A stretch of 64,000 nt of DNA from Escherichia phage JK1: sequence record MZ436830.1; one strand, written 5' to 3'. The notes below the pieces were generated by a model. The model was not told the DNA's origin. It saw only the letters and a program-made list of their open reading frames with translations, and ran no database searches. The position numbers were made by a program, and so were the translations under genes. This document shows, in pieces, positions 1 to 20,386 of this stretch (its first letter is position 1; each line of letters begins with the position of its first letter).

Positions 1-1
1 G

Positions 2-670
2 CTGGAAATCAACCGCGAAGTTGTTGATTGGATTAACTACTCCGCTCAGGCTGGTAAATCTGGTATGACCCTGACTCCGGGTTCTAAAGCTGGTGTATTT
101 GACTTCCAGGACCCAATCGATATTCGTGGTGCTCGCTGGGCGGGTGAATCCTTTAAAGCTCTGTTGTTCCAGATTGACAAAGAAGCAGTTGAAATTGCTC
201 GTCAGACCGGTCGTGGTGAAGGTAACTTCATTATCGCTTCCCGTAACGTAGTTAACGTTCTGGCTTCAGTTGATACTGGCATTTCTTATGCTGCACAAGG
301 TCTGGCTACCGGCTTTAACACTGATACTACCAAGTCAGTATTTGCTGGTGTTCTGGGTGGTAAATACCGCGTATATATCGACCAGTATGCTAAACAGGAT
401 TATTTCACTGTAGGTTATAAAGGTCCGAACGAAATGGATGCTGGTATTTACTATGCTCCATATGTAGCTCTGACTCCGCTGCGTGGTTCCGATCCGAAGA
501 ACTTCCAACCGGTAATGGGGTTCAAAACTCGTTACGGTATCGGTATCAACCCATTTGCAGAATCCGCTGCTCAGGCTCCGGCTTCTCGCATCCAGAGCGG
601 TATGCCTTCTATTCTGAATAGCCTTGGTAAAAACGCTTACTTCCGCCGTGTATATGTTAAAGGTATCTAA
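2..670 (+). CDS. 23: Major capsid protein gp23, C-terminal part (5' end lies outside the window)
   Basis: Open frame from window edge; translation ...FKTRYGIGINPFAESAAQAPASRIQSGMPSILNSLGKNAYFRRVYVKGI matches remembered T4 gp23 C-terminus; followed by hairpin terminator. Confidence 0.9.
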   Translation: MEINREVVDWINYSAQAGKSGMTLTPGSKAGVFDFQDPIDIRGARWAGESFKALLFQIDKEAVEIARQTGRGEGNFIIASRNVVNVLASVDTGISYAAQGLATGFNTDTTKSVFAGVLGGKYRVYIDQYAKQDYFTVGYKGPNEMDAGIYYAPYVALTPLRGSDPKNFQPVMGFKTRYGIGINPFAESAAQAPASRIQSGMPSILNSLGKNAYFRRVYVKGI

Positions 671-685
671 TCTTTGACGATTTAA

Positions 686-714
686 GGGACCTTCGGGTCC
701 CTTTAGTTGTTTTT
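686..714 (+). terminator. Intrinsic terminator after gene 23
   Basis: GGGACCUUCGGGUCCC hairpin (UUCG loop) followed by U-rich tract. Confidence 0.75.
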
Positions 715-718
715 ATGG

Positions 719-726
719 TATAAATA
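719..726 (+). promoter_or_regulatory. Late promoter (TATAAATA) for gene 24
   Basis: Exact TATAAATA ~28 nt upstream of ATG 754. Confidence 0.7.
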
Positions 727-753
727 AATCATATAAACCAAAAGGAAAGCGCA

Positions 754-2037
754 ATGGCTAAAATCAACGAACTTCTGCGCGAATCAACCACAACGAATAG
801 CAACTCAATCGGTCGCCCAAATCTCGTTGCTTTGACTCGCGCTACCACTAAATTAATATATTCTGACATTGTAGCAACGCAAAGAACTAATCAACCTGTT
901 GCTGCTTTTTATGGTATCAAATACCTTAACCCAGACAACGAATTTACATTTAAAACTGGTGCTACTTACGCTGGCGAAGCTGGATATGTAGACCGAGAAC
1001 AAATCACAGAATTAACAGAAGAGTCTAAATTAACTCTCAATAAAGGCGATTTATTCAAATATAATAATATCGTTTATAAAGTATTAGAAGATACTCCATT
1101 TGCTGATATTGAAGAAAGCGACTTAGAGTTAGCTCTTCAGATTGCAATTGTTCTTTTAAAGGTTCGTCTATTTTCTGATGCTGCAGTAACAAGCAAATTT
1201 GAAAGCTCTGATAGTGAAATTGCGGATGCTAGATTCCAGATTAATAAATGGCAAACCGCAGTTAAATCTCGTAAACTTAAAACTGGCATCACAGTTGAAT
1301 TAGCACAAGATTTAGAAGCAAACGGATTCGATGCTCCTAATTTCTTGGAAGATTTGCTTGCAACTGAAATGGCGGATGAAATCAATAAAGATATTTTGCA
1401 GTCTTTGATTACAGTGTCAAAACGCTATAAAGTTACAGGAATTACTGATACTGGATTCATTGATTTGAGTTATGCATCTGCACCTGAAGCCGGTCGTTCA
1501 TTATACCGAATGGTATGCGAAATGGTTTCACATATCCAGAAAGAATCAACTTATACAGCAACGTTCTGTGTTGCTTCAGCTCGTGCCGCTGCGATTCTTG
1601 CTGCATCAGGTTGGTTAAAACATAAACCAGAAGATGACAAATATCTTTCACAAAATGCCTACGGGTTCTTAGCTAATGGTTTACCGCTTTATTGCGATAC
1701 CAACAGCCCATTAGATTATGTAATCGTTGGCGTAGTAGAAAATATTGGTGAAAAAGAAATTGTTGGATCAATTTTCTATGCTCCGTATACAGAAGGTCTT
1801 GACTTAGATGACCCTGAACATGTAGGTGCATTTAAAGTTGTAGTTGATCCAGAAAGTTTGCAGCCATCTATCGGTTTATTAGTTAGATATGCTTTATCTG
1901 CAAATCCTTACACTGTAGCAAAAGATGAAAAAGAAGCAAGAATAATTGATGGTGGAGACATGGATAAAATGGCGGGTCGTTCAGATTTGTCTGTTTTATT
2001 AGGTGTTAAGCTACCAAAAATTATCATTGATGAATAA
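754..2037 (+). CDS. 24: Head vertex protein gp24
   Basis: 427 aa, ATG preceded by AAGGAAAG and late promoter; synteny after gene 23; paralogous relation to gp23 expected. Confidence 0.9.
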   Translation: MAKINELLRESTTTNSNSIGRPNLVALTRATTKLIYSDIVATQRTNQPVAAFYGIKYLNPDNEFTFKTGATYAGEAGYVDREQITELTEESKLTLNKGDLFKYNNIVYKVLEDTPFADIEESDLELALQIAIVLLKVRLFSDAAVTSKFESSDSEIADARFQINKWQTAVKSRKLKTGITVELAQDLEANGFDAPNFLEDLLATEMADEINKDILQSLITVSKRYKVTGITDTGFIDLSYASAPEAGRSLYRMVCEMVSHIQKESTYTATFCVASARAAAILAASGWLKHKPEDDKYLSQNAYGFLANGLPLYCDTNSPLDYVIVGVVENIGEKEIVGSIFYAPYTEGLDLDDPEHVGAFKVVVDPESLQPSIGLLVRYALSANPYTVAKDEKEARIIDGGDMDKMAGRSDLSVLLGVKLPKIIIDE

Positions 2038-2040
2038 AAC

Positions 2041-2064
2041 AAAGGGACCTTTCGGTCCCTTTTT
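2041..2064. terminator. Bidirectional hairpin terminator between gene 24 and rnlB
   Basis: AAAGGGACCUUUCGGUCCCUUUUU: stem-loop flanked by A-run and U-run. Confidence 0.7.
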
Positions 2065-2066
2065 AT

Positions 2067-3071
2067 TTAACTTACCAATTCAATCCAAGCCGGACGAAGT
2101 ACATCTTGTACCATTTTAACTAATTCCTTCTTAATCAAAGAAGGATTATCCGCTTGAGTTAGAGTAATACCTTCACGAGAAGTTTCTTCCAAAATATCTT
2201 GAACCGTTAGTCCCATCACCTTTCCAAAATCTTTTGGACCAATTTCACCAATTTTAGAAATAACGTTATTTACTCGATTCAGTGTAACGTAACAAGCTAA
2301 AATTCCCAGCAATTTGTTATCAGCTTCTGACAGTTTAACTTTAGCTTTAATAGGCTTGTCAGACTTTTTCTTTTCACTAAATTTAGAATTCTTGCATTTG
2401 ATGGCTACACGATTGCGATTAGGCAGCCAAGAAGGATAACAAGGTTTCAATACATATCCTTCAGCGGTAAATACTTCGCCTTTGGCTTCAGCTTTCCAAA
2501 CACATTTGTTAGCGTCAATTAAACCTGCATTATCTACGGTAAAATTATAAGACGGAACAACAGAATCCAAATCATTTGGAAGTTTAATAAGATCTTCAAA
2601 TTTACCACGACCCAAAAGTGGAGCGATTTTAAACCCAAATGAATTACAAAACGATTCCATCATGTAATCATCAACATAAGTTACATCACCACTTTCGGTA
2701 GTGACAATAATGTCAAATACATAAAAATCTTTATCGCCATAATCAACATTCTTCTGAATGCCAGGTCCAGCGAATTCGCCAAAAACTTGATAAGTCACAA
2801 CAGCTGAAGTTTCCATAATTTCTTGGACAGCTTTAATAGAATCTTCGTAATTCTTTAAAATAATTTCATAACCGAAGAAATCTTCAGCAGGAAGAATCGG
2901 TCCAGTACGTTTAGCGCAAGTTACTTTATCACGCTCAATAATCAATGAGAAATTTGTGCCGTGAATCTTTTCACGAGCTACCCATTCGCCGCCAGTCAAT
3001 CCTAAGCTATAAATTTTTTCAATAAATTTAGAGTTGTAATGATTTTCAAGACTGCTATACTTTTTAAACAT
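2067..3071 (-). CDS. rnlB: RNA ligase 2
   Basis: 334 aa; nucleotidyltransferase motif I KIHGTN; matches remembered T4 Rnl2; synteny. Confidence 0.9.
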
Positions 3072-3080
3072 AATTAATCC

Positions 3081-3359
3081 TCAAAATGTAATTTCTAACC
3101 AATCACCATCACGCTGATCACTATTGACTTTAAAATTAAATCCTTCTTTTCTCAGCCAATCACCAATTTCCTCAGTAATCAATTTATCGCGAGCAGTACA
3201 ATAATAACTAAAATATGTTTTACCTTGTTCAGCTGCTTTATTAGCAAGTTCCGAAAAATCTTTAATAAAACACTCTAGCTTAAACTGTTTACTTTTTAAT
3301 GCTTTTTCACGTAATTGATTAGCAAAAGATTCATTTTCATAAAGATCATACTGTTCCAT
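3081..3359 (-). CDS. Hypothetical protein (92 aa)
   Basis: ORF with ATG start, synteny between rnlB and hoc. Confidence 0.6.
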   Translation of the reverse strand: MEQYDLYENESFANQLREKALKSKQFKLECFIKDFSELANKAAEQGKTYFSYYCTARDKLITEEIGDWLRKEGFNFKVNSDQRDGDWLEITF

Positions 3360-3561
3360 TTTTCACCTTTTTATTGATATGTCTTTTTCTATAGACAACT
3401 TTTTCTCGAGTTTCAAATTTATTCTTAGCAGTCATAGCTCGAGCCCATAATACAGCCACTTCTTTCGCCTGTAAGTTTAATTCACGAGCAATTTCAATGA
3501 ATGACTTTCCAGACTCATGAAGAGTAAACACCACAACCTCAGTTCTCATAATCAATCTCAT
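3346..3561 (-). CDS. Hypothetical small basic protein (71 aa), possible helix-turn-helix
   Basis: ORF; segment SFIEIARELNLQAKEVAVLW resembles an HTH by eye only. Confidence 0.5.
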   Translation of the reverse strand: MRLIMRTEVVVFTLHESGKSFIEIARELNLQAKEVAVLWARAMTAKNKFETREKVVYRKRHINKKVKNGTV

Positions 3562-3614
3562 GTTATCGAGTTGGTGCCATTATATACATCATTTTCTGAG
3601 TGTGTTTTGTGTGC

Positions 3615-3644
3615 TTTCAAAATGAAGAAAGGGGCCGAAGCCCC
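3615..3644 (-). terminator. Hairpin terminator after hoc
   Basis: GGGGCUUCGGCCCC on - strand followed by U-rich sequence. Confidence 0.5.
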
Positions 3645-3650
3645 TTATGA

Positions 3651-5069
3651 TTATGGATAGGTATAGATGATACCAGTTTCTAAAGCAGTTTTATGAATGA
3701 TGTATCCATTACGCGATTCTTGGACATCAACTTCTGGATAGTCTTTCATCATCTTCTGAAGAGTGTAACGATGCAGGTAGTATTTACTATCTGGATCTTC
3801 AGTTTTCCAATCTTTACCTTCTTCAGTCATTTTTTGAATTTCATCCATAACCCACCAACCGCACCAGATGTAAGCTGAGCTACGGTGTGGAAGAGGATGA
3901 ACATAAGGTAATTCACCTTCTGGTTCTGGAGCAACTTTATCAGTTACCTGAACTTGACCTTCTGCTGTAATAGTTTTGCTATCATAATCAGTAGCAGTAA
4001 CAATTGCCGTAACTTCAATAGTTTGACTTCCAATAGATGAGGTATCAACGGTATATACATTAGTTGACCCTTCTACAGGAGAAGAATCTTTCTTCCATGA
4101 ATACGCAATTTGCGCTTCTTCTGGAGCATCAGTGACATTAGCAGTAAATGTAGCCGAAGCATCTTGTTGAACGTTAATAGAAGGAGGAGTCAATGTAACC
4201 TGTGGATTCATTGTCTTCTTATTAACCGTTAATGATACTTCATTCGAAGTAACCTCCTTTTCATTGTAATTTTCTGCAGTTACTTGCGCTACACATTTAA
4301 TTCTTTTTACTCCACTTGTAGTTGGAGTATAGTTAAATGTAGCAGAAGTTGCTTCACCAATTTGAGAATCATCTACATACCACTGATACGTAGCAGATGC
4401 TCCACCAGGTTGAGAAGCTAAGGCAGCAGTAAATTGAACTGGGGTTCCAATTACTCCAGCTGGAGGACTATCAGGAGTTACTGCCAAGGTAGTTGTCTGT
4501 GTCTTTTTATTAACAGTCAGTGACACTTCATTAGAAGTAACTTCCTTTGCATCATAATCTGTCGCGGTTACTTGAGCTACACACTTAATTGTTTTAACTC
4601 CGCTTGCGTCAGGAGTGTAATTGAATGTAGCAGAAGTTGCTTCGCTTACAGGAGAACCGTCAACGTGCCATTGATACGTAGCAGACGCTCCTGGTGGCTG
4701 TGAAGCCAAGGCAGCAGTAAATTCAACGGCTGTTCCGATTACTCCTTCCGGAGGACTAGCAGGAGTTACGGCTAATGTAGTTGTTTGTGTCTTATTTTGA
4801 ACTGTGATAGTTGTACTAATTTCTGCTGTTTCAGGTTCAGATTCTGCAACTTGATTGGTTGCAACTACTTTAATAGTCTTTTGACCGGCAGGTCCTTTTA
4901 GTACATAACTAAAAGTTGCTGACGTTTCTTCCTGTGGAGCGTCGTCTACAGTCCAAGCATATGTAATAGGTCCATCTCCAGTTTGACCACTGGGTGTAGC
5001 AGTAAACTGCTGAGTCTGATCTATAACTCCAGTAGGTGTTTTAGGAGTTATATCAACTGTAAAAGCCAT
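3651..5069 (-). CDS. hoc: Highly immunogenic outer capsid protein Hoc (472 aa, four Ig-like modules plus capsid-binding C-terminus)
   Basis: Tandem Ig-like modules and C-terminus ...HRYTLQKMMKDYPEVD...IIYTYP; synteny; longer than remembered T4 Hoc. Confidence 0.85.
   Translation of the reverse strand: MAFTVDITPKTPTGVIDQTQQFTATPSGQTGDGPITYAWTVDDAPQEETSATFSYVLKGPAGQKTIKVVATNQVAESEPETAEISTTITVQNKTQTTTLAVTPASPPEGVIGTAVEFTAALASQPPGASATYQWHVDGSPVSEATSATFNYTPDASGVKTIKCVAQVTATDYDAKEVTSNEVSLTVNKKTQTTTLAVTPDSPPAGVIGTPVQFTAALASQPGGASATYQWYVDDSQIGEATSATFNYTPTTSGVKRIKCVAQVTAENYNEKEVTSNEVSLTVNKKTMNPQVTLTPPSINVQQDASATFTANVTDAPEEAQIAYSWKKDSSPVEGSTNVYTVDTSSIGSQTIEVTAIVTATDYDSKTITAEGQVQVTDKVAPEPEGELPYVHPLPHRSSAYIWCGWWVMDEIQKMTEEGKDWKTEDPDSKYYLHRYTLQKMMKDYPEVDVQESRNGYIIHKTALETGIIYTYP
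4221..4796 (-). repeat. Tandem duplication of a 288-bp Ig-like domain module inside hoc
   Basis: Two consecutive 96-codon units (4509-4796 and 4221-4508) nearly identical at protein level, with synonymous drift. Confidence 0.85.
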
Positions 5070-5078
5070 AAGTTATCC

Positions 5079-5759
5079 TTATTTTAATGTTACGAAAGAA
5101 GAATTACGTGTTTCACGAATTAGAACTGATCCGTCGCGATTAATGTAATAAATTAAGCTAAATAAAGTTTGGTGCGCCGACGCGTGTTCAAAACTAGTTG
5201 GGTGAGATTTCCAATCCGGAGTTTCAGCAATCCACTGGTAAATCCACCAAGGAACAGTGCAGAATCCTGGATTTTTTCCAATCAGCTGAAGATTCGGACT
5301 AAAGTTTTCCGGAAGAGTAAATACAGACGGCTTTTCAGATTCAATAATCTCAGCTACAGCCTGCTCAAATTTTTCTTCAACAAAAGGAGTATCTTCAATC
5401 AAAACATCGGTATTTTCAGGAATTTTATCCGTTTCTACTACTTCAATTTTAATGTCAGATTTAACCGGAGAATCAATCAGAAGTGCTGCCTCTGGATTGA
5501 CTTCTTCATCGTCATATTTTAATCCGTCTGCAGCATCAGCAGCATCAATTAAGTCTTTAATAGATAACCCATCAGTCTCTGGCATAGGTTCACTAGCGAG
5601 CTTCTGGAGGGCTTCTTCAATATCATTAACGATATTATCAAAAGATTTATTCTTTTTGACCTTTATACCAAACTGTTCAGCATATTCAGCTAATTTAGCT
5701 TTAGCTTCTTTATTATCATCAAGAGCCTTCAGCTCTGCAATATAATCTTTATCTATCAT
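5079..5759 (-). CDS. inh: Acidic protein, probable inhibitor of prohead protease (Inh)
   Basis: 226 aa acidic ORF in the position between hoc and uvsW; assignment by synteny. Confidence 0.6.
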   Translation of the reverse strand: MIDKDYIAELKALDDNKEAKAKLAEYAEQFGIKVKKNKSFDNIVNDIEEALQKLASEPMPETDGLSIKDLIDAADAADGLKYDDEEVNPEAALLIDSPVKSDIKIEVVETDKIPENTDVLIEDTPFVEEKFEQAVAEIIESEKPSVFTLPENFSPNLQLIGKNPGFCTVPWWIYQWIAETPDWKSHPTSFEHASAHQTLFSLIYYINRDGSVLIRETRNSSFVTLK

Positions 5760-5772
5760 AATATTTCCTCAG

Positions 5773-5780
5773 TATAAATA
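5773..5780 (+). promoter_or_regulatory. Late promoter for uvsW
   Basis: TATAAATA ~30 nt upstream of ATG 5810. Confidence 0.65.
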
Positions 5781-5809
5781 TAGATATATTTATTACATGG
5801 TATTTAGAC

Positions 5810-7321
5810 ATGACTGACATTAAAGTACATTTTTATGATTTTAGTCACGTGAGAATTGATTGTGAAGAAAGTACATTTCATGAACTCCGTGATTTCTTTA
5901 GCTTTGAAGCTGATGGGTATCGTTTTAATCCGAAGTACAAATATGGCCACTGGGATGGACGAATCCGTCTTTTAGATTATAATCGCCTTCTTCCATTCGG
6001 TTTAGTCGGGCAAATTAAAAAGTTCTGCGATAACTTTGGCTATAAAGCCTGGATTGACCCACAGATTAACGAAAAAGAAGAATTATCAAGAAAAGATTTT
6101 GATGAATGGCTTTCTAAATTAGAAATCTATTCAGGAAATAAAAGAATTGAACCGCATTGGTATCAAAAAGATGCAGTGTTCGAAGGATTAGTTAATCGTC
6201 GTAGAATTCTTAATCTTCCAACATCCGCAGGTAAATCTTTAATTCAAGCTTTGCTTGCTCGGTATTATTTGGAAAATTATGAAGGCAAAATTCTTATCAT
6301 TGTTCCAACAACTGCTCTGACAACTCAGATGGCTGATGACTTTGTTGACTATCGTTTATTCAGTCATGCAATGATAAAGAAAATCGGCGGTGGAGCATCA
6401 AAAGATGATAAATATAAAAATGATGCACCAGTCGTTGTTGGTACATGGCAAACTGTAGTAAAACAACCGAAAGAATGGTTCTCACAGTTTGGAATGATGA
6501 TGAATGATGAATGCCATCTTGCTACAGGAAAAAGTATTTCATCTATCATATCAGGTTTAAATAACTGTATGTTTAAATTTGGTTTGTCTGGTTCATTACG
6601 TGATGGCAAAGCTAATATCATGCAGTATGTTGGAATGTTTGGTGAAATATTTAAGCCAGTAACGACTTCTAAATTAATGGAAGATGGACAAGTAACTGAG
6701 TTAAAAATTAATAGTATTTTTCTTCGCTATCCAGATGAGTTCACTACTAAATTAAAGGGAAAAACTTACCAAGAAGAAATAAAAATTATTACTGGACTCA
6801 GTAAAAGAAATAAATGGATCGCTAAATTAGCTATTAAGCTTGCGCAAAAAGATGAAAACGCTTTTGTCATGTTTAAACACGTATCGCACGGTAAAGCTAT
6901 TTTCGATTTAATTAAAAATGAATACGATAAAGTTTATTACGTATCAGGGGAAGTTGATACCGAAACCCGCAATATAATGAAAACCTTAGCTGAAAATGGT
7001 AAAGGAATAATTATAGTAGCTAGTTATGGTGTATTTTCTACTGGTATTTCAGTTAAAAATCTGCATCACGTTGTTTTAGCGCACGGTGTTAAATCAAAAA
7101 TCATTGTATTACAAACAATCGGTCGTGTATTACGTAAGCATGGTTCTAAGACAATAGCAACCGTCTGGGACCTCATAGATGATTGTGGCGTTAAGCCAAA
7201 ATCTGCTAATACGAAAAAGAAATATGTTCATTTGAACTATCTTTTAAAACACGGCATTGATCGTATTCAGCGCTATGCAGATGAAAAATTTAATTACGTA
7301 ATGAAAACAGTTAATTTATAA
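5810..7321 (+). CDS. uvsW: UvsW RNA-DNA/DNA helicase
   Basis: 503 aa; Walker A-like PTSAGKS and DExH box MMNDECH; late promoter upstream. Confidence 0.9.
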   Translation: MTDIKVHFYDFSHVRIDCEESTFHELRDFFSFEADGYRFNPKYKYGHWDGRIRLLDYNRLLPFGLVGQIKKFCDNFGYKAWIDPQINEKEELSRKDFDEWLSKLEIYSGNKRIEPHWYQKDAVFEGLVNRRRILNLPTSAGKSLIQALLARYYLENYEGKILIIVPTTALTTQMADDFVDYRLFSHAMIKKIGGGASKDDKYKNDAPVVVGTWQTVVKQPKEWFSQFGMMMNDECHLATGKSISSIISGLNNCMFKFGLSGSLRDGKANIMQYVGMFGEIFKPVTTSKLMEDGQVTELKINSIFLRYPDEFTTKLKGKTYQEEIKIITGLSKRNKWIAKLAIKLAQKDENAFVMFKHVSHGKAIFDLIKNEYDKVYYVSGEVDTETRNIMKTLAENGKGIIIVASYGVFSTGISVKNLHHVVLAHGVKSKIIVLQTIGRVLRKHGSKTIATVWDLIDDCGVKPKSANTKKKYVHLNYLLKHGIDRIQRYADEKFNYVMKTVNL

Positions 7322-7346
7322 GGGCTTCGGCCCTTTGGAGAAAAAG

Positions 7347-7577
7347 ATGTTACTAGAATTTAAACAATTTCTTTATGAAGCTTCTATTGATGAATTTATG
7401 GGTAAAATTGCCTCTTGTCAAACATTAGAAGGTTTAGAAGAACTTGAAGCTTATTATAAGAAAAGAGTTAAAGAAACTGAATTAAAAGATACTGATGACA
7501 TCTCAGTCAGAGATGCTTTGGCAGGAAAAAGAGCTGAATTAGAAGATTCAGACGATGAAGTAGAAGAAAGCTTTTAA
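7347..7577 (+). CDS. uvsW.1: UvsW.1 small protein (76 aa)
   Basis: ATG at 7347 with GGAG 6 nt upstream (ORF-track start 7335 is TTG); acidic C-terminus. Confidence 0.7.
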   Translation: MLLEFKQFLYEASIDEFMGKIASCQTLEGLEELEAYYKKRVKETELKDTDDISVRDALAGKRAELEDSDDEVEESF

Positions 7578-7632
7578 ATTAAAAAAGGCCCAACCAAAAA
7601 GGAAGGGCCAAAACTATAGACTAAAGGTCACA

Positions 7633-7800
7633 CTATAGCAAAAGTTGTGTTTCATTTAATTGTTCTTCCGAACTTTCTGAAACTGGTAGTTCTTTAATGT
7701 AATTATAGCAAGGCCCAGGATGTACAGGACCTTTGTCTGTTTCAACAACCAATGCAGAATCGATTGGAGTTTTACAGACAACACAAATCTTATCTGACAT
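7633..7800 (-). CDS. Small Cys-containing protein (55 aa)
   Basis: Not in ORF track (<60 aa); GAGGAG RBS then ATG at 7800; CVVC...PGPC; late promoter at 7831-7838. Confidence 0.5.
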   Translation of the reverse strand: MSDKICVVCKTPIDSALVVETDKGPVHPGPCYNYIKELPVSESSEEQLNETQLLL

Positions 7801-7830
7801 GATTGTCTCCTCTGAATTATATATATATTC

Positions 7831-7838
7831 TATTTATA
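7831..7838 (-). promoter_or_regulatory. Late promoter for the 55-aa ORF
   Basis: TATAAATA on - strand ~30 nt upstream of ATG 7800. Confidence 0.55.
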
Positions 7839-8058
7839 CAACTCTCATATGCATATCAATGCCCATATCTTTAGAATAAAAATATTCATCAAGATATCCG
7901 GCAAATTTTCCTTTAATATAAATGACATCTTCACCACACGGGTGGTCGGCCAGGATACGAATATCCTGACGCTTAAGATTATACTTTTTCATTAAGAATT
8001 GAATTTCCGTTTCAAATTCTTCTTCATAATTAAAAGCATCATCAATGCTATATCTCAT
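7834..8058 (-). CDS. Hypothetical protein (74 aa)
   Basis: ORF immediately downstream of uvsY. Confidence 0.6.
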   Translation of the reverse strand: MRYSIDDAFNYEEEFETEIQFLMKKYNLKRQDIRILADHPCGEDVIYIKGKFAGYLDEYFYSKDMGIDMHMRVV

Positions 8059-8471
8059 TATTTTCCAGCCTCAAATGCTCGCATGTCTTGAATATGCTTA
8101 ATAGCAAATCCACGTGATTTGATAGCATCAAGAGCTCCGCTACAGAAATCTAATAAAATCCCCCAATACTGTAACGAGGTATCAATCTTTAAAACATCCT
8201 TATCAGCTGATAGAACTGTCTTCATTTCTGATTTCTCGTAACGATCCATACTAAATTCATCACCATCTCCTCGTCCCGAGTAGTAGTCTAATTTAGCTTT
8301 AAGAGCAACTTTTTTCTGTGCATCAATTCTAAGCATTTCCTTTTTAATACTTGAATGCTTATTAAGCCATTTACTATATAACATCACATTATTAGCTGCT
8401 TCATACTGTAATTTAGTCGAATCTATAAACACATCTTTCTTCAATTCTTCTTGAAGATCTTCTAATCTCAT
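8058..8471 (-). CDS. uvsY: UvsY recombination mediator
   Basis: 137 aa; matches remembered T4 UvsY size; MotA-box middle promoter upstream. Confidence 0.9.
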   Translation of the reverse strand: MRLEDLQEELKKDVFIDSTKLQYEAANNVMLYSKWLNKHSSIKKEMLRIDAQKKVALKAKLDYYSGRGDGDEFSMDRYEKSEMKTVLSADKDVLKIDTSLQYWGILLDFCSGALDAIKSRGFAIKHIQDMRAFEAGK

Positions 8472-8511
8472 ATTGTTCTCTATTCAATTGTTATTGGATG
8501 GACTTAGATTC

Positions 8512-8537
8512 ATTATACCACGTTTATACGTGAAGCA
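8512..8537 (-). promoter_or_regulatory. MotA-dependent middle promoter of uvsY (origin-associated in T4)
   Basis: - strand reads TAATGCTTCA-13 nt-TATAAT about 40 nt upstream of uvsY ATG. Confidence 0.6.
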
Positions 8538-8936
8538 TTATACTCTATTACTGGAAGCCAGTTGTAGTTTTATCTGCTCAATGTCATCAGGGTTATCAAT
8601 GACCGAAAAGCGTATTTCTACTATCAGAGTATAATCATCATAAACTGGTATAACATTAACTGCTAATTTATCAATACGTGGCTCATAGTTTCTTACTGCG
8701 CTTTCGATATTACGCTCAACCGTGTCAGCAGTAAGAGGAGTCATATTCTCAAAAAGTTGGTCAGATAAATCACATCCAAATTCAGGGTCAAACGGTCTTG
8801 AACCTTTTCTTGTTGTAATAATTCCTAAAAGACTATTTTTAATTGACCTTAATCCAAGTGATCTTGAAACGTCTTTGTTCCAATCCATTTTCATCTCTGG
8901 GTCAATATCAGAATAAAGCTTATTAATATTTGCCAT
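8538..8936 (-). CDS. 25: Baseplate wedge protein gp25
   Basis: 132 aa; synteny 25-26 divergent from 51. Confidence 0.9.
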   Translation of the reverse strand: MANINKLYSDIDPEMKMDWNKDVSRSLGLRSIKNSLLGIITTRKGSRPFDPEFGCDLSDQLFENMTPLTADTVERNIESAVRNYEPRIDKLAVNVIPVYDDYTLIVEIRFSVIDNPDDIEQIKLQLASSNRV

Positions 8937-9562
8937 TACAATAGCTCAAAGAATTCTTTGAGTCCTCTTATTACATGAGCGTGAGTTTTTCCACACTCTG
9001 GACACTTAATTGGAACAGCCAAATAAACGGTAGGCTTTAAAAGCATATCTTTTATAGCTACAATATCTGACTCTGTGATGATAGAATATAAATCTTCCAG
9101 TTCTTTTTCATTTAAGTCTTCAACTGGAATGCTTTCACCGTTAGCATGAATCGTTTCTATGCATGATACTATCATGTGGGCTATATTTTTATCATCAAAA
9201 ATTTTAGGGTAATGGAATTTAATTTTAATGTCACCCAGTGTATACCAGAGGTCTTCTGGTGCATCTATTTGTGTATGTAATAGATTTATATGGGTTGGTA
9301 TTTCAGTTCCACAGGTGCACTTCCAGGAGTTTTCGTGATTAACTTCTCCAAGAGAATGCGCCCATAAATGAATCAACAATAGTTCTGATTCTTGGCGGTT
9401 TAAATCTTTTGCATTTGTGCAGTCTTTGATTAGCTTTTTAACAATTACTTCTACGGAACCATTATTTTTGGCAGTAATAAGTTCTAGATATTCTTTAAGC
9501 GTGAATGCGCGACAATTGATTATTTTAGAACCAACTCTCACATCAAATTTGTATTCATACAT
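8936..9562 (-). CDS. 26: Baseplate hub protein gp26
   Basis: 208 aa; synteny; palindromic late promoter upstream. Confidence 0.85.
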
Positions 9563-9583
9563 ATTTAGCTCCTTTATTTATCA

Positions 9584-9595
9584 TATTTATAAATA
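9584..9595. promoter_or_regulatory. Divergent overlapping late promoters for genes 26 and 51
   Basis: Palindrome TATTTATAAATA reads TATAAATA on both strands, between divergent ATGs 9562 and 9613. Confidence 0.65.
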
Positions 9596-9612
9596 GAATA
9601 AAAGGAGCATCT

Positions 9613-10362
9613 ATGGCAAACATTATTCGTTGTAAATTACCAGATGGTGTTCATCGTTTTAAACCATTTACGGTAGAAGATTATCGAGATTTTTTGTTAG
9701 TTCGAAACGATATAGAACATCGGTCACCACAAGAACAAAAAGAAATAATTGCTGATTTAATTGCCGATTATTTTGGAGACTATCCGAAGACTTGGCAACC
9801 ATTTATATTTTTGCAGGTATTTGTAGGGTCAATAGGTAAAACTAAAGTACCGGTCACATTTGTATGTCCAAAATGTAAAAAAGAAAAGACAGTTCCATTT
9901 GAAATATATCAAAAAGAATTAAAGGAACCTGTTTTTGATGTAGCTAATGTTAAAATTAAATTAAAGTTTCCTTCTGAGTTTTATGAAAATAAAGCAAAGA
10001 TGATTACTGAAAATATTCATTCTGTTCAAGTAGATGAAATATGGTATGATTGGAAGGAAATTAGCGAGTCCAGTCAAATAGAACTAGTTGACGCCATCGA
10101 GATAGAAACATTAGAAAAAATTCTCGATGCAATGAATCCTATTAATTTAACTCTACATATGTCATGCTGTAATAAGTACATTAAAAAATACACTGATATA
10201 GTAGACGTGTTTAAGCTATTAGTTAACCCAGATGAGATATTTACTTTTTATCAAATTAATCACACACTCGTAAAAAGTAATTATAGCTTAAATTCAATAA
10301 TGAAAATGATTCCTGCCGAGCGCGGATTCGTATTAAAACTGATTGAGAAGGATAAACAATAA
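9613..10362 (+). CDS. 51: Baseplate hub assembly protein gp51
   Basis: 249 aa; AAAGGAG RBS; late promoter; synteny. Confidence 0.85.
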
Positions 10363-11537
10363 TGAGTATGTTGCAACGCCCCGGATATCCAAATCTCAGC
10401 GTTAAATTATTTGATAGCTACGACGCTTGGAGTAATAATAGATTTGTTGAATTAGCTGCTACTATTACCACATTAACTATGCGGGATTCTCTTTATGGAC
10501 GAAATGAAGGAATGCTGCAGTTTTATGATTCTAAAAATATCCACACAAAAATGGATGGAAATGAAATAATTCAAATTTCTGTAGCTAATGCAAACGATAT
10601 TAATAATGTTAAAACACGAATTTATGGATGCAAGCATTTTTCCGTGTCAGTAGATTCAAAAGGTGATAACATCATTGCTATTGAATTGGGAACTATTCAT
10701 TCTATAGAAAATCTTAAATTTGGTAGACCATTTTTCCCTGATGCAGGTGAATCTATAAAAGAAATGCTTGGTGTCATTTATCAAGACCGCACATTATTAA
10801 CTCCAGCAATAAATGCTATAAATGCTTATGTTCCTGATATTCCATGGACTAGTACATTTGAAAATTATTTGTCCTATGTAAGAGAAGTTGCTCTAGCTGT
10901 AGGAAGTGACAAATTTGTATTTGTGTGGCAAGACATCATGGGAGTTAACATGATGGACTATGATATGATGATAAATCAAGAACCATATCCAATGATTGTC
11001 GGCGAGCCATCTTTAATAGGTCAATTCATCCAAGAATTAAAATATCCATTAGCATATGATTTCGTTTGGTTGACTAAATCGAATCCTCACAAACGTGACC
11101 CAATGAAAAATGCTACTATCTATGCGCATTCATTTTTAGATTCTTCATTGCCAATGATTACTACGGGAAAGGGCGAAAACTCTATTGTAGTGTCAAGGTC
11201 AGGTGCTTATTCTGAAATGACTTATAGGAATGGCTATGAAGAAGCTATTCGTCTTCAAACTATGGCGCAATACGATGGCTATGCTAAATGTTCTACTGTC
11301 GGTAATTTTAACTTGACTCCTGGCGTTAAAATTATTTTTAATGATAGTAAAAACCAATTTAAAACAGAATTTTACGTTGATGAAGTCATCCATGAATTAT
11401 CCAATAATAATTCAGTAACTCATCTATATATGTTCACTAATGCAACGAAACTGGAAACAATAGACCCAGTTAAGGTTAAAAATGAATTTAAATCTGATAC
11501 TACCACTGAAGAAAGTAGTTCTTCCAATAAGCAATAA
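10362..11537 (+). CDS. 27: Baseplate hub protein gp27
   Basis: 391 aa; ATGA overlap with gene 51 stop. Confidence 0.9.
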
Positions 11538-12015
11538 AGAAGTTTCTATTCCTAAAATGGGTCTTAAACACTATAACATTTTAAAAGATGTTAAAGGTCC
11601 TGATGAAAATTTAAAACTTCTTATTGATTCTATTTGTCCGAATTTATCACCGGCAGAAGTTGATTTCGTTTCTATTCATCTATTGGAATTTAATGGAAAG
11701 ATTAAATCTCGTAAAGAAATAGATGGTTATACTTATGACATTAATGATGTTTATGTATGCCAAAGATTGGAATTTCAATACCAAGGAAATACATTTTATT
11801 TTAGACCTCCTGGAAAATTTGAACAATTTTTAACTGTAAGCGATATGTTATCCAAATGCTTGCTTAAGGTCAATGATGAAGTTAAAGAAATTAATTTTCT
11901 TGAGATGCCAGCATTCGTTTTAAAATGGGCAAATGATATTTTTACAACTTTAGCAATTCCTGGCCCTAATGGTCCAATAACCGGAATTGGCAATATTATT
12001 GGATTATTTGAATGA
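11482..12015 (+). CDS. 28: Baseplate hub distal subunit gp28
   Basis: 177 aa; overlaps 3' end of gene 27 by 56 nt. Confidence 0.8.
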
Positions 12016-18292: not shown

Positions 18293-20386
18293 TTATCCTT
18301 GAACGAACTTGTAAGGCATGTTTGTAATATCTATGCAAGACGCAATAATTCCAAGAGATGATTCTACTTTCTGTTTAACGTTTGATGAAACAAATGATGC
18401 AAAGTCAACTTTGTCTTCTATTTCAATATCACCTGTCATTGCAACTACTTCGCCGGTTTCCATTAGATGGTCACCGTCATAAATTACCGATTCGGTGAGT
18501 TCTTCTGTGGTCATAACTTCAGCTTGAATAAGTTTTGTATTATTAGATGTTGTTCCGTCATTATTAGAAGCATCAGTTATTTTATTAACTTTAACCATCA
18601 ATCCGCGCGGTAGAATAACTTCAGCTTCTGTTGCTATTCCTAGACTTCCTGGATATACAACATTAACTTTATGTGCGCCGTCAATTGCCCATCCTATTTG
18701 AACTTTAACGTATTCAGGATTTTCTTTATACGCTCTTATTTCGTTTGGATTAATAGTTATTCCTTCTTCATTTTTATCAACTGTTAATTCATTGCGAGCT
18801 TCTGGTTCTAAAAGACCAATACCAGCATGTGTAATTCCAAAACGTCCAAAAATGATAGGAGTTAAAGAAGTAGATACAAAATTTCTGAAGTAGAACACTT
18901 TATTTTTAACTAACGCTTCATATATAGGAGCAGTCATACTTTGAGCACGATAAACTGTAATGCCTTCTGGTATACGGTCACCATTTTCAAAAGCTGAATC
19001 TAAGTTATTTATAGCAGATTCAATTTCTTTTTCACTCATTACATCATATCGTTCTGGATTGTAACGACCTAAAAGAAGATTATTGATGTCAGTATATCCT
19101 GAACCGCAATATTCTCTAATGCCACGCTTTTGTGATGGAGTATATTTAGAACCATCGCGGGCAATAGTAATATCAATCATTGGACCAGCACCAATTCCAG
19201 AAAAACTGTAAATCATTCGTTTGAGGAATTTAGTTTTTGCTGCGTTCCAGGAATTTTTAGTTATTTCTTCCCAGACTTCATCTGGTTGTCCTTTACGATT
19301 TTTATTATGATTAGCAAGCCATTTATCTTTATAATCTTCAAAGAATTGATTTACAGCTGCTGCGTATTTCTCTAAACATTTTATTGAAGTAGTTGGTTCA
19401 TTTTTAATTGCATTAAAAATTACTTCTTTAATTTTTTCTGAAACTTCACCGACTTGACTCATTGGAAAGAATTTATAATCATAGTGAAGTTCATCTGCCG
19501 TTCCTTCAGCAATAATTTTTGCTGCCTTTGTTTTAGAAGCTAATGAATTAATTCCAATTTTCATTTCTTCTGCTTCGGGAATTAAAGGTGCAGTAGCTGG
19601 TTTATTAAAATTAGCTGCTGTAGATTCATACTTCTGGAATAATTCACTTTCAAATCTAGAAGATTCCAATGACTGACTTTGTGCAATTGCTCTACGGGAA
19701 ATTTTAACTTTAACGATTACAGCTTGGTCAGAACGTTTATCGTTTTCTTGCGCAATAGATGCTGCAATTGCCTCATTTTTAGTTACTTGGGCTCCAGTAT
19801 CTTTATTGATATAAACATCACCAACCTTCGATTCAACCTTAGTAAAGAGTTCAGTACTAATTTCTGGAACTCCTGGAATGTCTTCTAGTGATACGTTTTT
19901 ACGATGTATAAGAATATATGCATACTTTTTATCGTAATCCCAGAGTTCCTTAAGAAGGACGTATCTGCCACCTGAACGACTACGGATAAGTCTATCAGCA
20001 ATAACTTGAATTTGTCGAGCTTGACCAGCGGTTTTAGACTTAAGAATACGAAGCATACAAGCATCAATTTTATATTGACGCATTGTTTGCATTGCAACAG
20101 TAAAAACTGAATTGATATAATTAATTGGGCTTGGACCAAGACCTTTCAATTTAGCAATTGAACCTTTAGCAGTTAATGTAAAAGGAACAATATGCATCAT
20201 TTTGTCGCCCATTTTTAAATCACGATTAGTATCACCTCCAGATGTATAGGTACATAAACGAAAGCCTGGTTGTTCAATTGCATCATCAACATGAACTGAA
20301 AAAATTTGTGGTATTTTCTTCTTTGGATTTAAGTTTGTAATCGGAAGAGTAGTATCTTCGTCAAATAATTCTGTAATGAGTTCCAT
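18293..20386 (-). CDS. Second Alt-family ADP-ribosyltransferase paralog (697 aa)
   Basis: Paralog of adjacent ORF: same N-terminal ~230 aa and same ART triad (VYRAQ ... FVSTSL ... EAEVILPRG); late promoter at 20410-20417. Confidence 0.8.
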   Translation of the reverse strand: MELITELFDEDTTLPITNLNPKKKIPQIFSVHVDDAIEQPGFRLCTYTSGGDTNRDLKMGDKMMHIVPFTLTAKGSIAKLKGLGPSPINYINSVFTVAMQTMRQYKIDACMLRILKSKTAGQARQIQVIADRLIRSRSGGRYVLLKELWDYDKKYAYILIHRKNVSLEDIPGVPEISTELFTKVESKVGDVYINKDTGAQVTKNEAIAASIAQENDKRSDQAVIVKVKISRRAIAQSQSLESSRFESELFQKYESTAANFNKPATAPLIPEAEEMKIGINSLASKTKAAKIIAEGTADELHYDYKFFPMSQVGEVSEKIKEVIFNAIKNEPTTSIKCLEKYAAAVNQFFEDYKDKWLANHNKNRKGQPDEVWEEITKNSWNAAKTKFLKRMIYSFSGIGAGPMIDITIARDGSKYTPSQKRGIREYCGSGYTDINNLLLGRYNPERYDVMSEKEIESAINNLDSAFENGDRIPEGITVYRAQSMTAPIYEALVKNKVFYFRNFVSTSLTPIIFGRFGITHAGIGLLEPEARNELTVDKNEEGITINPNEIRAYKENPEYVKVQIGWAIDGAHKVNVVYPGSLGIATEAEVILPRGLMVKVNKITDASNNDGTTSNNTKLIQAEVMTTEELTESVIYDGDHLMETGEVVAMTGDIEIEDKVDFASFVSSNVKQKVESSLGIIASCIDITNMPYKFVQG

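Follow-up and report, generated by a model that had tools for sequence, protein, structure and literature searches.

An additional Ig-like domain in Hoc of Escherichia phage JK1 as probable part of an old, copy-number-variable cassette array

The outer capsid protein gene hoc of Escherichia phage JK1 (sequence record MZ436830.1) encodes T4 Hoc plus exactly one added segment of 96 aa, which repeats T4 domain 2, and the resulting pair of tandem units most probably belongs to an old, selectively maintained and copy-number-variable array of domain cassettes that is reshuffled by homologous recombination between phages; the probability of this reading is put at roughly 0.85. The initial annotation of the window, which is the whole stretch of 64,000 nucleotides that was analysed, had interpreted the pair as nearly identical copies left by a recent tandem duplication. 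In the history proposed here, the domain 2 cassette would be present one to four times per natural phage hoc gene and would fall into at least four old, diverged families of fixed order, and each unit would be a complete folded Ig-like domain kept by purifying selection. JK1 would have inherited the array, which was probably not newly made in its genome, and would share it with other phages through domain-by-domain exchange. The 472-aa Hoc of JK1 thus represents a common allele class and ordinary natural variation.

The phage genome from which the window derives is of the T4 type (Tequatrovirus-like), and the gene at 3651-5069 is hoc (Table 1), with the length of 472 aa that had been read from the sequence at the outset. 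Its product matches T4 Hoc (376 aa; PDB 5vf3 chain Z) with a phmmer E value of 5e-209, and the gene order around it, with hoc downstream of inh, between it and the 71-aa ORF, and near uvsW, is matched in T4, RB14, teqsoen and others. The terminator-like hairpin AAGGGGCTTCGGCCCCTT follows hoc directly, and a terminator is annotated at the equivalent position in the record of Yersinia phage fPS-65, while no T4 late promoter (TATAAATA) was found on the hoc strand in the interval from hoc to uvsW. The first 12 kb of the window are about 97.5% identical to teqsoen, phiD1 and others; in comparisons with the same phages hoc is about 94% identical and its flanks about 97.5%, so hoc is more diverged than its flanks.

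Table 1. Features of the hoc region of phage JK1, in positions of the window
Feature	Position	Strand	Description
hoc	3651..5069	minus	ORF, 472 aa + stop; decoration fibre of the outer capsid with a four-domain Ig-like string followed by a C-terminal capsid-binding domain
Ig-like domain 1, fibre tip	4797..5069	minus	aa 1-91; aligns to T4 Hoc 1-91; AF2 beta-sandwich, pLDDT ~90
Linker motif AATAAGACA (N-K-T)	4788..4796	minus	domain 1/unit 1 boundary; junction alignment
Repeat unit 1, family A	4509..4796	minus	aa 92-187
NEVSLT copy 1	4515..4532	minus	aa 180-185, unit 1
Linker motif AAAAAGACA (K-K-T)	4500..4508	minus	unit 1/unit 2 boundary; junction alignment
Repeat unit 2, family B	4221..4508	minus	aa 188-283; family of T4's single domain 2
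NEVSLT copy 2	4227..4244	minus	aa 276-281, unit 2
Linker motif AAGAAGACA (K-K-T)	4212..4220	minus	unit 2/domain 3 boundary; junction alignment
Ig-like domain 3	3942..4220	minus	aa 284-376; aligns to T4 Hoc 188-280; Pfam Ig_3/I-set at 289-373; AF2 strands to residue 376
C-terminal capsid-binding domain	3654..3941	minus	aa 377-472; aligns to T4 Hoc 281-376; nearly invariant in relatives
Terminator-like hairpin AAGGGGCTTCGGCCCCTT + T-rich tail	3619..3646	minus	begins 4 nt past hoc stop codon
71-aa ORF	3346-3561		other side of hoc; slot of DUF2774 protein (gene 24.3) in relatives
inh-like ORF	5079-5759		neighbour of hoc
uvsW-like ORF	5810-7321		beyond inh-like gene

T4 Hoc residues 1-112 pair with JK1 Hoc residues 1-112, and T4 residues 99-376 pair with JK1 residues 195-472 without gaps, so that the domain-wise alignment bears out the earlier view that JK1 Hoc has one Ig-like domain more than T4 Hoc. 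Structure prediction gave the same count, the AF2 model placing four beta-sandwich Ig-like domains over residues 1-376 with pLDDT of about 90. The C-terminal part of this model is of low confidence (pLDDT below 50), and its relative domain geometry is therefore provisional. Pfam profiles matching JK1 Hoc are PKD, Ig_2, Ig_3 and I-set, and four-Ig ectodomains are the top Foldseek matches in the PDB, ICAM-5 D1-D4 and Dscam1 among them. On virions of T4-type phages, Hoc is characteristically bound as a single molecule in the middle of each major-capsid-protein hexamer. The T4 segment that aligns with the C-terminal domain is the capsid-binding domain as used in an earlier study (PMC10385173). The last 96 residues of JK1 Hoc are nearly identical to T4 Hoc, and the match between the hoc genes of RB69 and JK1 is confined to this C-terminal part, at 96% nucleotide identity. 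The repeat units are about 40% identical in amino acid sequence to domains 1 and 3 (36 of 88 residues shared between domain 1 and unit 1), which are older paralogues.

The two 96-residue units lie exactly at the positions given in the initial annotation. Tandem Repeats Finder reported a period of 288 at 4212-4793 with 2.0 copies, 80% matches and a score of 747, and a second repeat search likewise returned two 288-nt copies at 79%. Since the linker motif AAGAAGACA follows the second unit, the repeat finders run 9 nt beyond two full copies. The sequence GTT-NAN-AAN-AAGACA is common to all three domain boundaries of JK1 hoc and would hold unit exchanges in frame.

Among 50,697 records of the phage collection searched, megablast with JK1 hoc found matches in 656 phage records, many with a 1419-nt hoc gene (best 95.7%) and others with the 1131-nt T4 form, while a census with a one-unit query gave 890 unit matches in 616 phage records. 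When 60 evenly spaced records were taken from these 616, one unit was present in 38, two units in 21 and four units in 1, and a whole-gene sample contained about 20 two-unit versus 32 one-unit hoc genes. The two-unit form is therefore found, by these samples of the phage collection, in about 35-40% of T4-type hoc genes, and it also occurs in phages labelled Mosigvirus, which is another genus. Hoc lengths form a series of 376, 472, 568 and 664 aa that corresponds to one, two, three and four units, with phage FJ1 carrying the 664-aa four-unit Hoc. An IMG/VR scan contributed little, with four close relatives. The hoc genes in the T2 and T6 records are frameshifted. More distant Hoc genes (L005-L021), whose internal repeats at the protein level were judged by eye, form an independent series marked by duplication of domain 3 or loss of domain 2, and their domain 2 is too diverged for rooting the unit families. 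Variable Ig-domain number in Hoc has already been published, while no description of the 376/472/568/664 series or of the cassette order was found in the literature searched, a coverage that largely leaves out subscription journals.

With a dN/dS of about 0.1, purifying selection acts on both JK1 units, and neither shows signs of decay. Unit 1 and unit 2 are identical at 227 of 288 nucleotides (78.8%) and at 78 of 96 residues (81%), and the differences are distributed 12/9/40 by codon position, with 31 synonymous versus 18 non-synonymous differing codons, which agrees with the earlier remark that the copies differ mainly at synonymous sites. By the Nei-Gojobori method, dS between the two units is 0.96 and dN is 0.109, giving a dN/dS of 0.11, and the 14 multi-unit genes gave a between-unit dS of 0.81-1.39 with dN/dS of 0.09-0.26. 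Across 119 Hoc proteins with 162 units, mean column entropy is 0.32 in domain 1, 0.37 in the units, 0.15 in domain 3 and 0.043 in the C-terminal domain; variability in these 119 relatives drops from the fibre tip toward the capsid, the C-terminal domain being the least variable. Within the 162 units, variation gathers at some two dozen positions, each with discrete alternatives, and none is seen in the NEVSLT segment or in the beta-strand core.

Such constraint, including the clustering of variation at a few positions and the lack of decay in either unit, argues against regarding the extra domain as a neutral change of length, without consequence for the biology of the phage, in a decoration protein that is dispensable. 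The AF2 model, in which both units are predicted to be well folded, points the same way, as does the demonstrated ligand of domain 2 in the related PhiPNJ-9 Hoc (PMC11853027). Neutrality would nevertheless accord with the non-essential role of Hoc in the laboratory (PMC9958956), with the frameshifted hoc records of T2 and T6, and with the coexistence of one- to four-unit alleles in similar phages from similar sources; it is considered possible but doubtful.

The units of different phages fall into discrete families. Clustering of 40 DNA units gave four families, A to D, with identities of 0.88-0.97 within and 0.775-0.84 between families, B and C being the closest pair (0.84) and A the most distant (about 0.78); 21 diagnostic sites split the first-unit type from the later-unit type. 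FJ1 holds all four families in the order A-B-C-D, JK1 has A-B, and each of the 14 multi-unit DNA arrays can be read as an ordered subsequence of A-B-C-D. The same order is followed by 37 of 37 multi-unit protein clusters (AB 23, AD 3, AC 2, BD 1, ABC 3, ABD 3 and ACD 2) in a sample of the 120 clusters most similar to JK1 Hoc; the sampled clusters are kin by descent, so the order rule reflects fewer independent events than these counts suggest. Neither the 14 DNA arrays nor the 37 multi-unit protein clusters contain a gene with two units of one family. Family A comes first in the multi-unit genes examined, except in PuKrdSF4, where the first unit is an A/B chimera, and in the one BD protein cluster.

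Several units are chimeras that mark past crossovers. Unit 1 of PuKrdSF4 equals unit 1 of ABZCBI to nt 24 and unit 2 of ABZCBI from nt 38; the T4 unit starts with an A-type 5' tip, has B sequence as its body and contains an A-like patch at nt 231-255; and the fPS-65 unit has an A tip followed by D. In FJ1, one known array matches the left two units at 100% identity, and a second one matches the right two at 96-98%. The A-type 5' tips on single-unit B and D genes were considered as proof of array deletion and set aside, as single-unit genes that recombine allelically would show them as well. In the 21-gene DNA sample, the closest relative of JK1 hoc shifts from domain to domain. The earlier suggestion that the repeat is a substrate for expansion and contraction finds support on the evolutionary scale, given the alleles with 1, 2, 3 and 4 units and the chimeric units.

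Single-unit genes are known for family A (RB14, UFV13), family B (T4, LF82-8) and family D (fPS-65), and from such alleles a two-unit gene could have been joined by unequal crossover at the linker between an A-type and a B-type allele in co-infecting phages, in which case the divergence of the units would predate the joining and the single-unit form would be ancestral. The boundary sequence shared by all three junctions could guide such a crossover, and the left and right parts of FJ1, each matching a known array at 96-100%, indicate that arrays are built by joining. Repeated independent joining, however, is not expected to keep one order, and all 51 of 51 arrays are collinear; moreover, the similarity of the families tracks their order in the array, as stepwise tandem duplication predicts. 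Neither objection is decisive, and this origin is judged rather unlikely. For the old cassette array preferred here, a longer ancestral array that contracted would account for the chimeras and the conserved order, and so would a few assembly events with later allelic recombination; contraction is favoured because the unit order is conserved, whereas the chimeras fit both directions.

The distances between units were further compared for JK1 hoc and 20 other hoc genes (the 21-gene DNA sample). JK1 unit 1 has a dS of 0.18-0.69 to the first units of other phages and of 0.73-1.12 to their later units, with the exception of the third unit of UGKSEcP1 (0.44), while JK1 unit 2 has a dS of 0.14-0.55 to the second units of other phages. 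To the single unit of T4, dS is 0.23 for JK1 unit 2 and 0.82 for JK1 unit 1. Each JK1 unit is thus much nearer to same-position units elsewhere than to its own neighbour (0.96). Within each multi-unit gene examined, the nucleotide identity between units is 74-84%, and among these genes no two units of one gene exceed 84% identity; in the genes with the two-unit architecture the copies are as diverged as those of JK1, at 75-80%.

It is therefore very improbable that domain 2 was recently duplicated in the JK1 lineage and that the copies are still near-identical, as the initial annotation had proposed. What had suggested it stands, in that the units lie head to tail and in frame, each of 288 nt or 96 aa, and the domain is single in T4. 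The copies, however, are diverged at the level given above, with no identical in-register run longer than 20 nt; each has closer counterparts in many phages than its neighbour; roughly one T4-type hoc gene in three has the two-unit form, among them genes of phages labelled as another genus; and 84% is the maximum identity between two units of any gene examined. The initial annotation had itself named two observations that would speak against it: Hoc proteins of the same lineage with the four-Ig architecture and equally similar repeats, which were found, and units less than 60% identical at the DNA level, above which the observed 78.8% lies.

Targeted hypermutation, for example by a diversity-generating retroelement with one unit templating the other, is the least probable reading and may practically be discounted: although a phage surface protein whose Ig-like domains vary mainly at a restricted number of positions might call it to mind, the 61 differing sites are not adenine-specific (C20/G16/A15/T10 in one unit against A25/T16/G12/C8 in its neighbour), transitions number 33 and transversions 28, third codon positions account for two thirds of the differences, the unit variants are discrete alleles common to several phages, and a template/variable repeat signature with adenine-specific mismatches is absent in the pair of hoc units. 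An assembly artefact or a chance repeat was also rejected, as the copies are 21% diverged and in frame and the structure recurs in hundreds of independent genomes.

Within the old cassette array, copy number and unit content may be altered by in-register homologous recombination between units, most plausibly in co-infecting phages, and the conserved linker and last-strand sequence at each domain boundary might assist this recombination. The efficiency of T4 recombination drops sharply at short homology lengths. The JK1 copies share identical runs of at most 20 nt and would therefore be poor recombination partners, so frequent length polymorphism within a stock is not expected. Judged from these sequences, the JK1 array is expected to be fairly stable within a stock. 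Persistence of only those neighbouring units that are diverged would likewise fit the lack of same-family pairs and of pairs more than 84% identical.

The functional consequences of the extra unit may be approached through a relative with a known ligand. In the PhiPNJ-9 Hoc, binding of fucosylated MUC2 lies with domain 2 (N92-N187) and depends on residues S183, L184 and T185 (PMC11853027). JK1 Hoc has the corresponding segment, NEVSLT, at residues 180-185 and a second time at 276-281. The Hoc of AV113 (283 aa) has the PhiPNJ-9 architecture, with one unit and without domain 3, and its family-A unit is 88% identical at the nucleotide level to JK1 unit 1. In JK1, the extra unit would add one Ig domain of length to the capsid fibre and would supply a second copy of NEVSLT, which might serve as a second glycan-binding and antigenic module. 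In mucus adherence, this might change the reach and avidity of the fibre as well as its antigenic surface, with the capsid-binding domain left untouched. By analogy with PhiPNJ-9, the doubling of NEVSLT may affect mucin binding of JK1, the published binding being that of the three-domain PhiPNJ-9 Hoc. A more tentative idea is that one to four A-B-C-D cassettes, tuned in number and combination by recombination and each supplying a NEVSLT copy of its own, could make hoc a population dial of fibre length, glycan avidity and antigenic identity in the gut, with synonymous divergence letting the array survive T4 recombination.

As a finding in a single genome, JK1 hoc is of little weight, its allele class being common and already deposited. 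The one-to-four copy series and the fixed order of four families may serve work on mucus adherence, phage immunogenicity and T4 Hoc display, and they provide natural length and valency variants of the Hoc fibre on a conserved capsid anchor that are directly comparable. T4, the laboratory reference, has just one of several common Hoc architectures. In addition, the patterns suggest that repeat divergence shields in-frame arrays in a highly recombinogenic genome. The ordered four-family pattern and the copy series may merit a short comparative study, which does not make the JK1 gene unusual.

In comparison with known systems, JK1 hoc is the same gene at the same locus as hoc of T4, with high collinear similarity in domain 1, domain 3 and the capsid-binding domain; the difference is that T4 Hoc has three Ig-like domains (Fokine et al. 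2023, PMC10385173), whereas JK1 Hoc has four, a family-A 96-aa unit being placed in frame ahead of the T4-type unit. The 472-aa Hoc proteins of PinkRuby, teqsoen, phiD1, ECO4, slur02 and others have the same architecture, length, two unit families and order, with 88-96% nucleotide identity over the gene, and JK1 hoc differs from these genes at the allele level only (best full-length match 95.7%). GenBank lists these 472-aa relatives under the names Hoc-like head decoration or PKD domain protein. Hoc has been described as a conserved capsid-binding domain that carries Ig-like domains in a string of variable length, ten at most in some phages, and the Hoc homologue of Serratia phage Muldoon has 10 Ig-like domains (PMC10385173). 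Domain number in Hoc is described as varying widely, and an additional Ig-like domain relative to T4 is reported for Klebsiella phage PMBT63 (PMC13435897), and the Hoc of PhiPNJ-9 is without domain 3 (PMC11853027). The Hoc proteins of Muldoon, PhiPNJ-9 and PMBT63 resemble that of JK1 in the modular Ig-like string on a conserved capsid-binding domain; the published comparisons concern distant phages, whereas the present series of one to four copies concerns a single domain within one close group and consists of ordered families. Bacterial adhesins with Ig-like or other repeat domains change length by recombination between repeats, and hoc resembles these surface proteins in its in-frame whole-domain repeats, in alleles that differ by whole units and in recombination between units. 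The repeats of bacterial adhesins are often near-identical and shift in length at high frequency, whereas the hoc units are about 20% diverged without long identical runs; the array would therefore be comparatively stable within a genome, unlike the adhesin repeats.

Identity between the window and the same related phages is about 94% within hoc and about 97.5% in the surrounding 12 kb, and synonymous divergence (dS) between the window hoc and that of teqsoen alternates by domain: it is 0.01–0.02 in domains 1 and 3, which are almost identical, and 0.24–0.31 in the C-terminal domain and in both copies of the 96-aa repeat (hereafter, unit) that corresponds to domain 2. Since hoc is less conserved than its flanks and its divergence changes from domain to domain, the comparison indicates that the gene is built of domain-sized mosaic blocks. 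The top full-length match to the window hoc (95.7%) lies in a 32 kb record labelled Staphylococcus phage SAJK-IND, which bears a T4-type hoc; the label or the record itself is probably wrong.

Coordinates of hoc loci and nearby features
Feature	Record (handle)	Position	Strand
hoc	Window	3651-5069	minus
Surrounding 12 kb	Window	1-12000	
Late-promoter motif	Window	5773-5780	plus
hoc, SAJK-IND	MG010123.1 (H1/H41)	18685-20103	
hoc, vB_EcoM_FJ1	MZ170040.1 (L040)	940-2934	
hoc, T2	PV648363.1 (L031)	301-1417	
hoc, T6	NC_054907.1 (L032)	301-1432	
hoc, sister lineage	IMG/VR contigs (L005-L012)	1501 onward	

The longest allele among the T4-type hoc genes seen is that of Escherichia phage vB_EcoM_FJ1 (1995 nt, 664 aa), in which four tandem units bring the total to six Ig-like domains. 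A homing endonuclease gene is located immediately upstream of inh in this phage. Hoc proteins of a sister lineage, with about 50% amino acid identity, also vary stepwise in size, at 282, 377 or 471–472 aa; the longest members carry a tandem pair of domain-3-like units, while the shortest is devoid of domain 2. Judged by sequence, whole Ig domains have been gained and lost independently in this lineage, at the same NKT/KKT linkers.

The exact T4 late-promoter motif (TATAAATA) is absent from the hoc/inh (minus) strand between hoc and uvsW (window 5079-5800), and a promoter for inh-hoc was not found there; the sole nearby copy is on the plus strand. In the laboratory phages T2 and T6, hoc, or its record, appears to be frameshifted, because the annotation is split into two or three fragments and translation ends after 62 codons in T2 and 161 in T6.

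T4-type hoc alleles, with one or two units or without domain 3, are also present in the Mosigvirus-labelled phages mobillu (L028), JN02 (L029), LF82-8 (L036) and AV113 (L041); the match of RB69 itself (H99) to the window hoc is restricted to the last 273 nt, at 96% nucleotide identity. Together, these two patterns suggest that hoc, or parts of it, have been exchanged between genera, with a recombination boundary where the capsid-binding domain begins.
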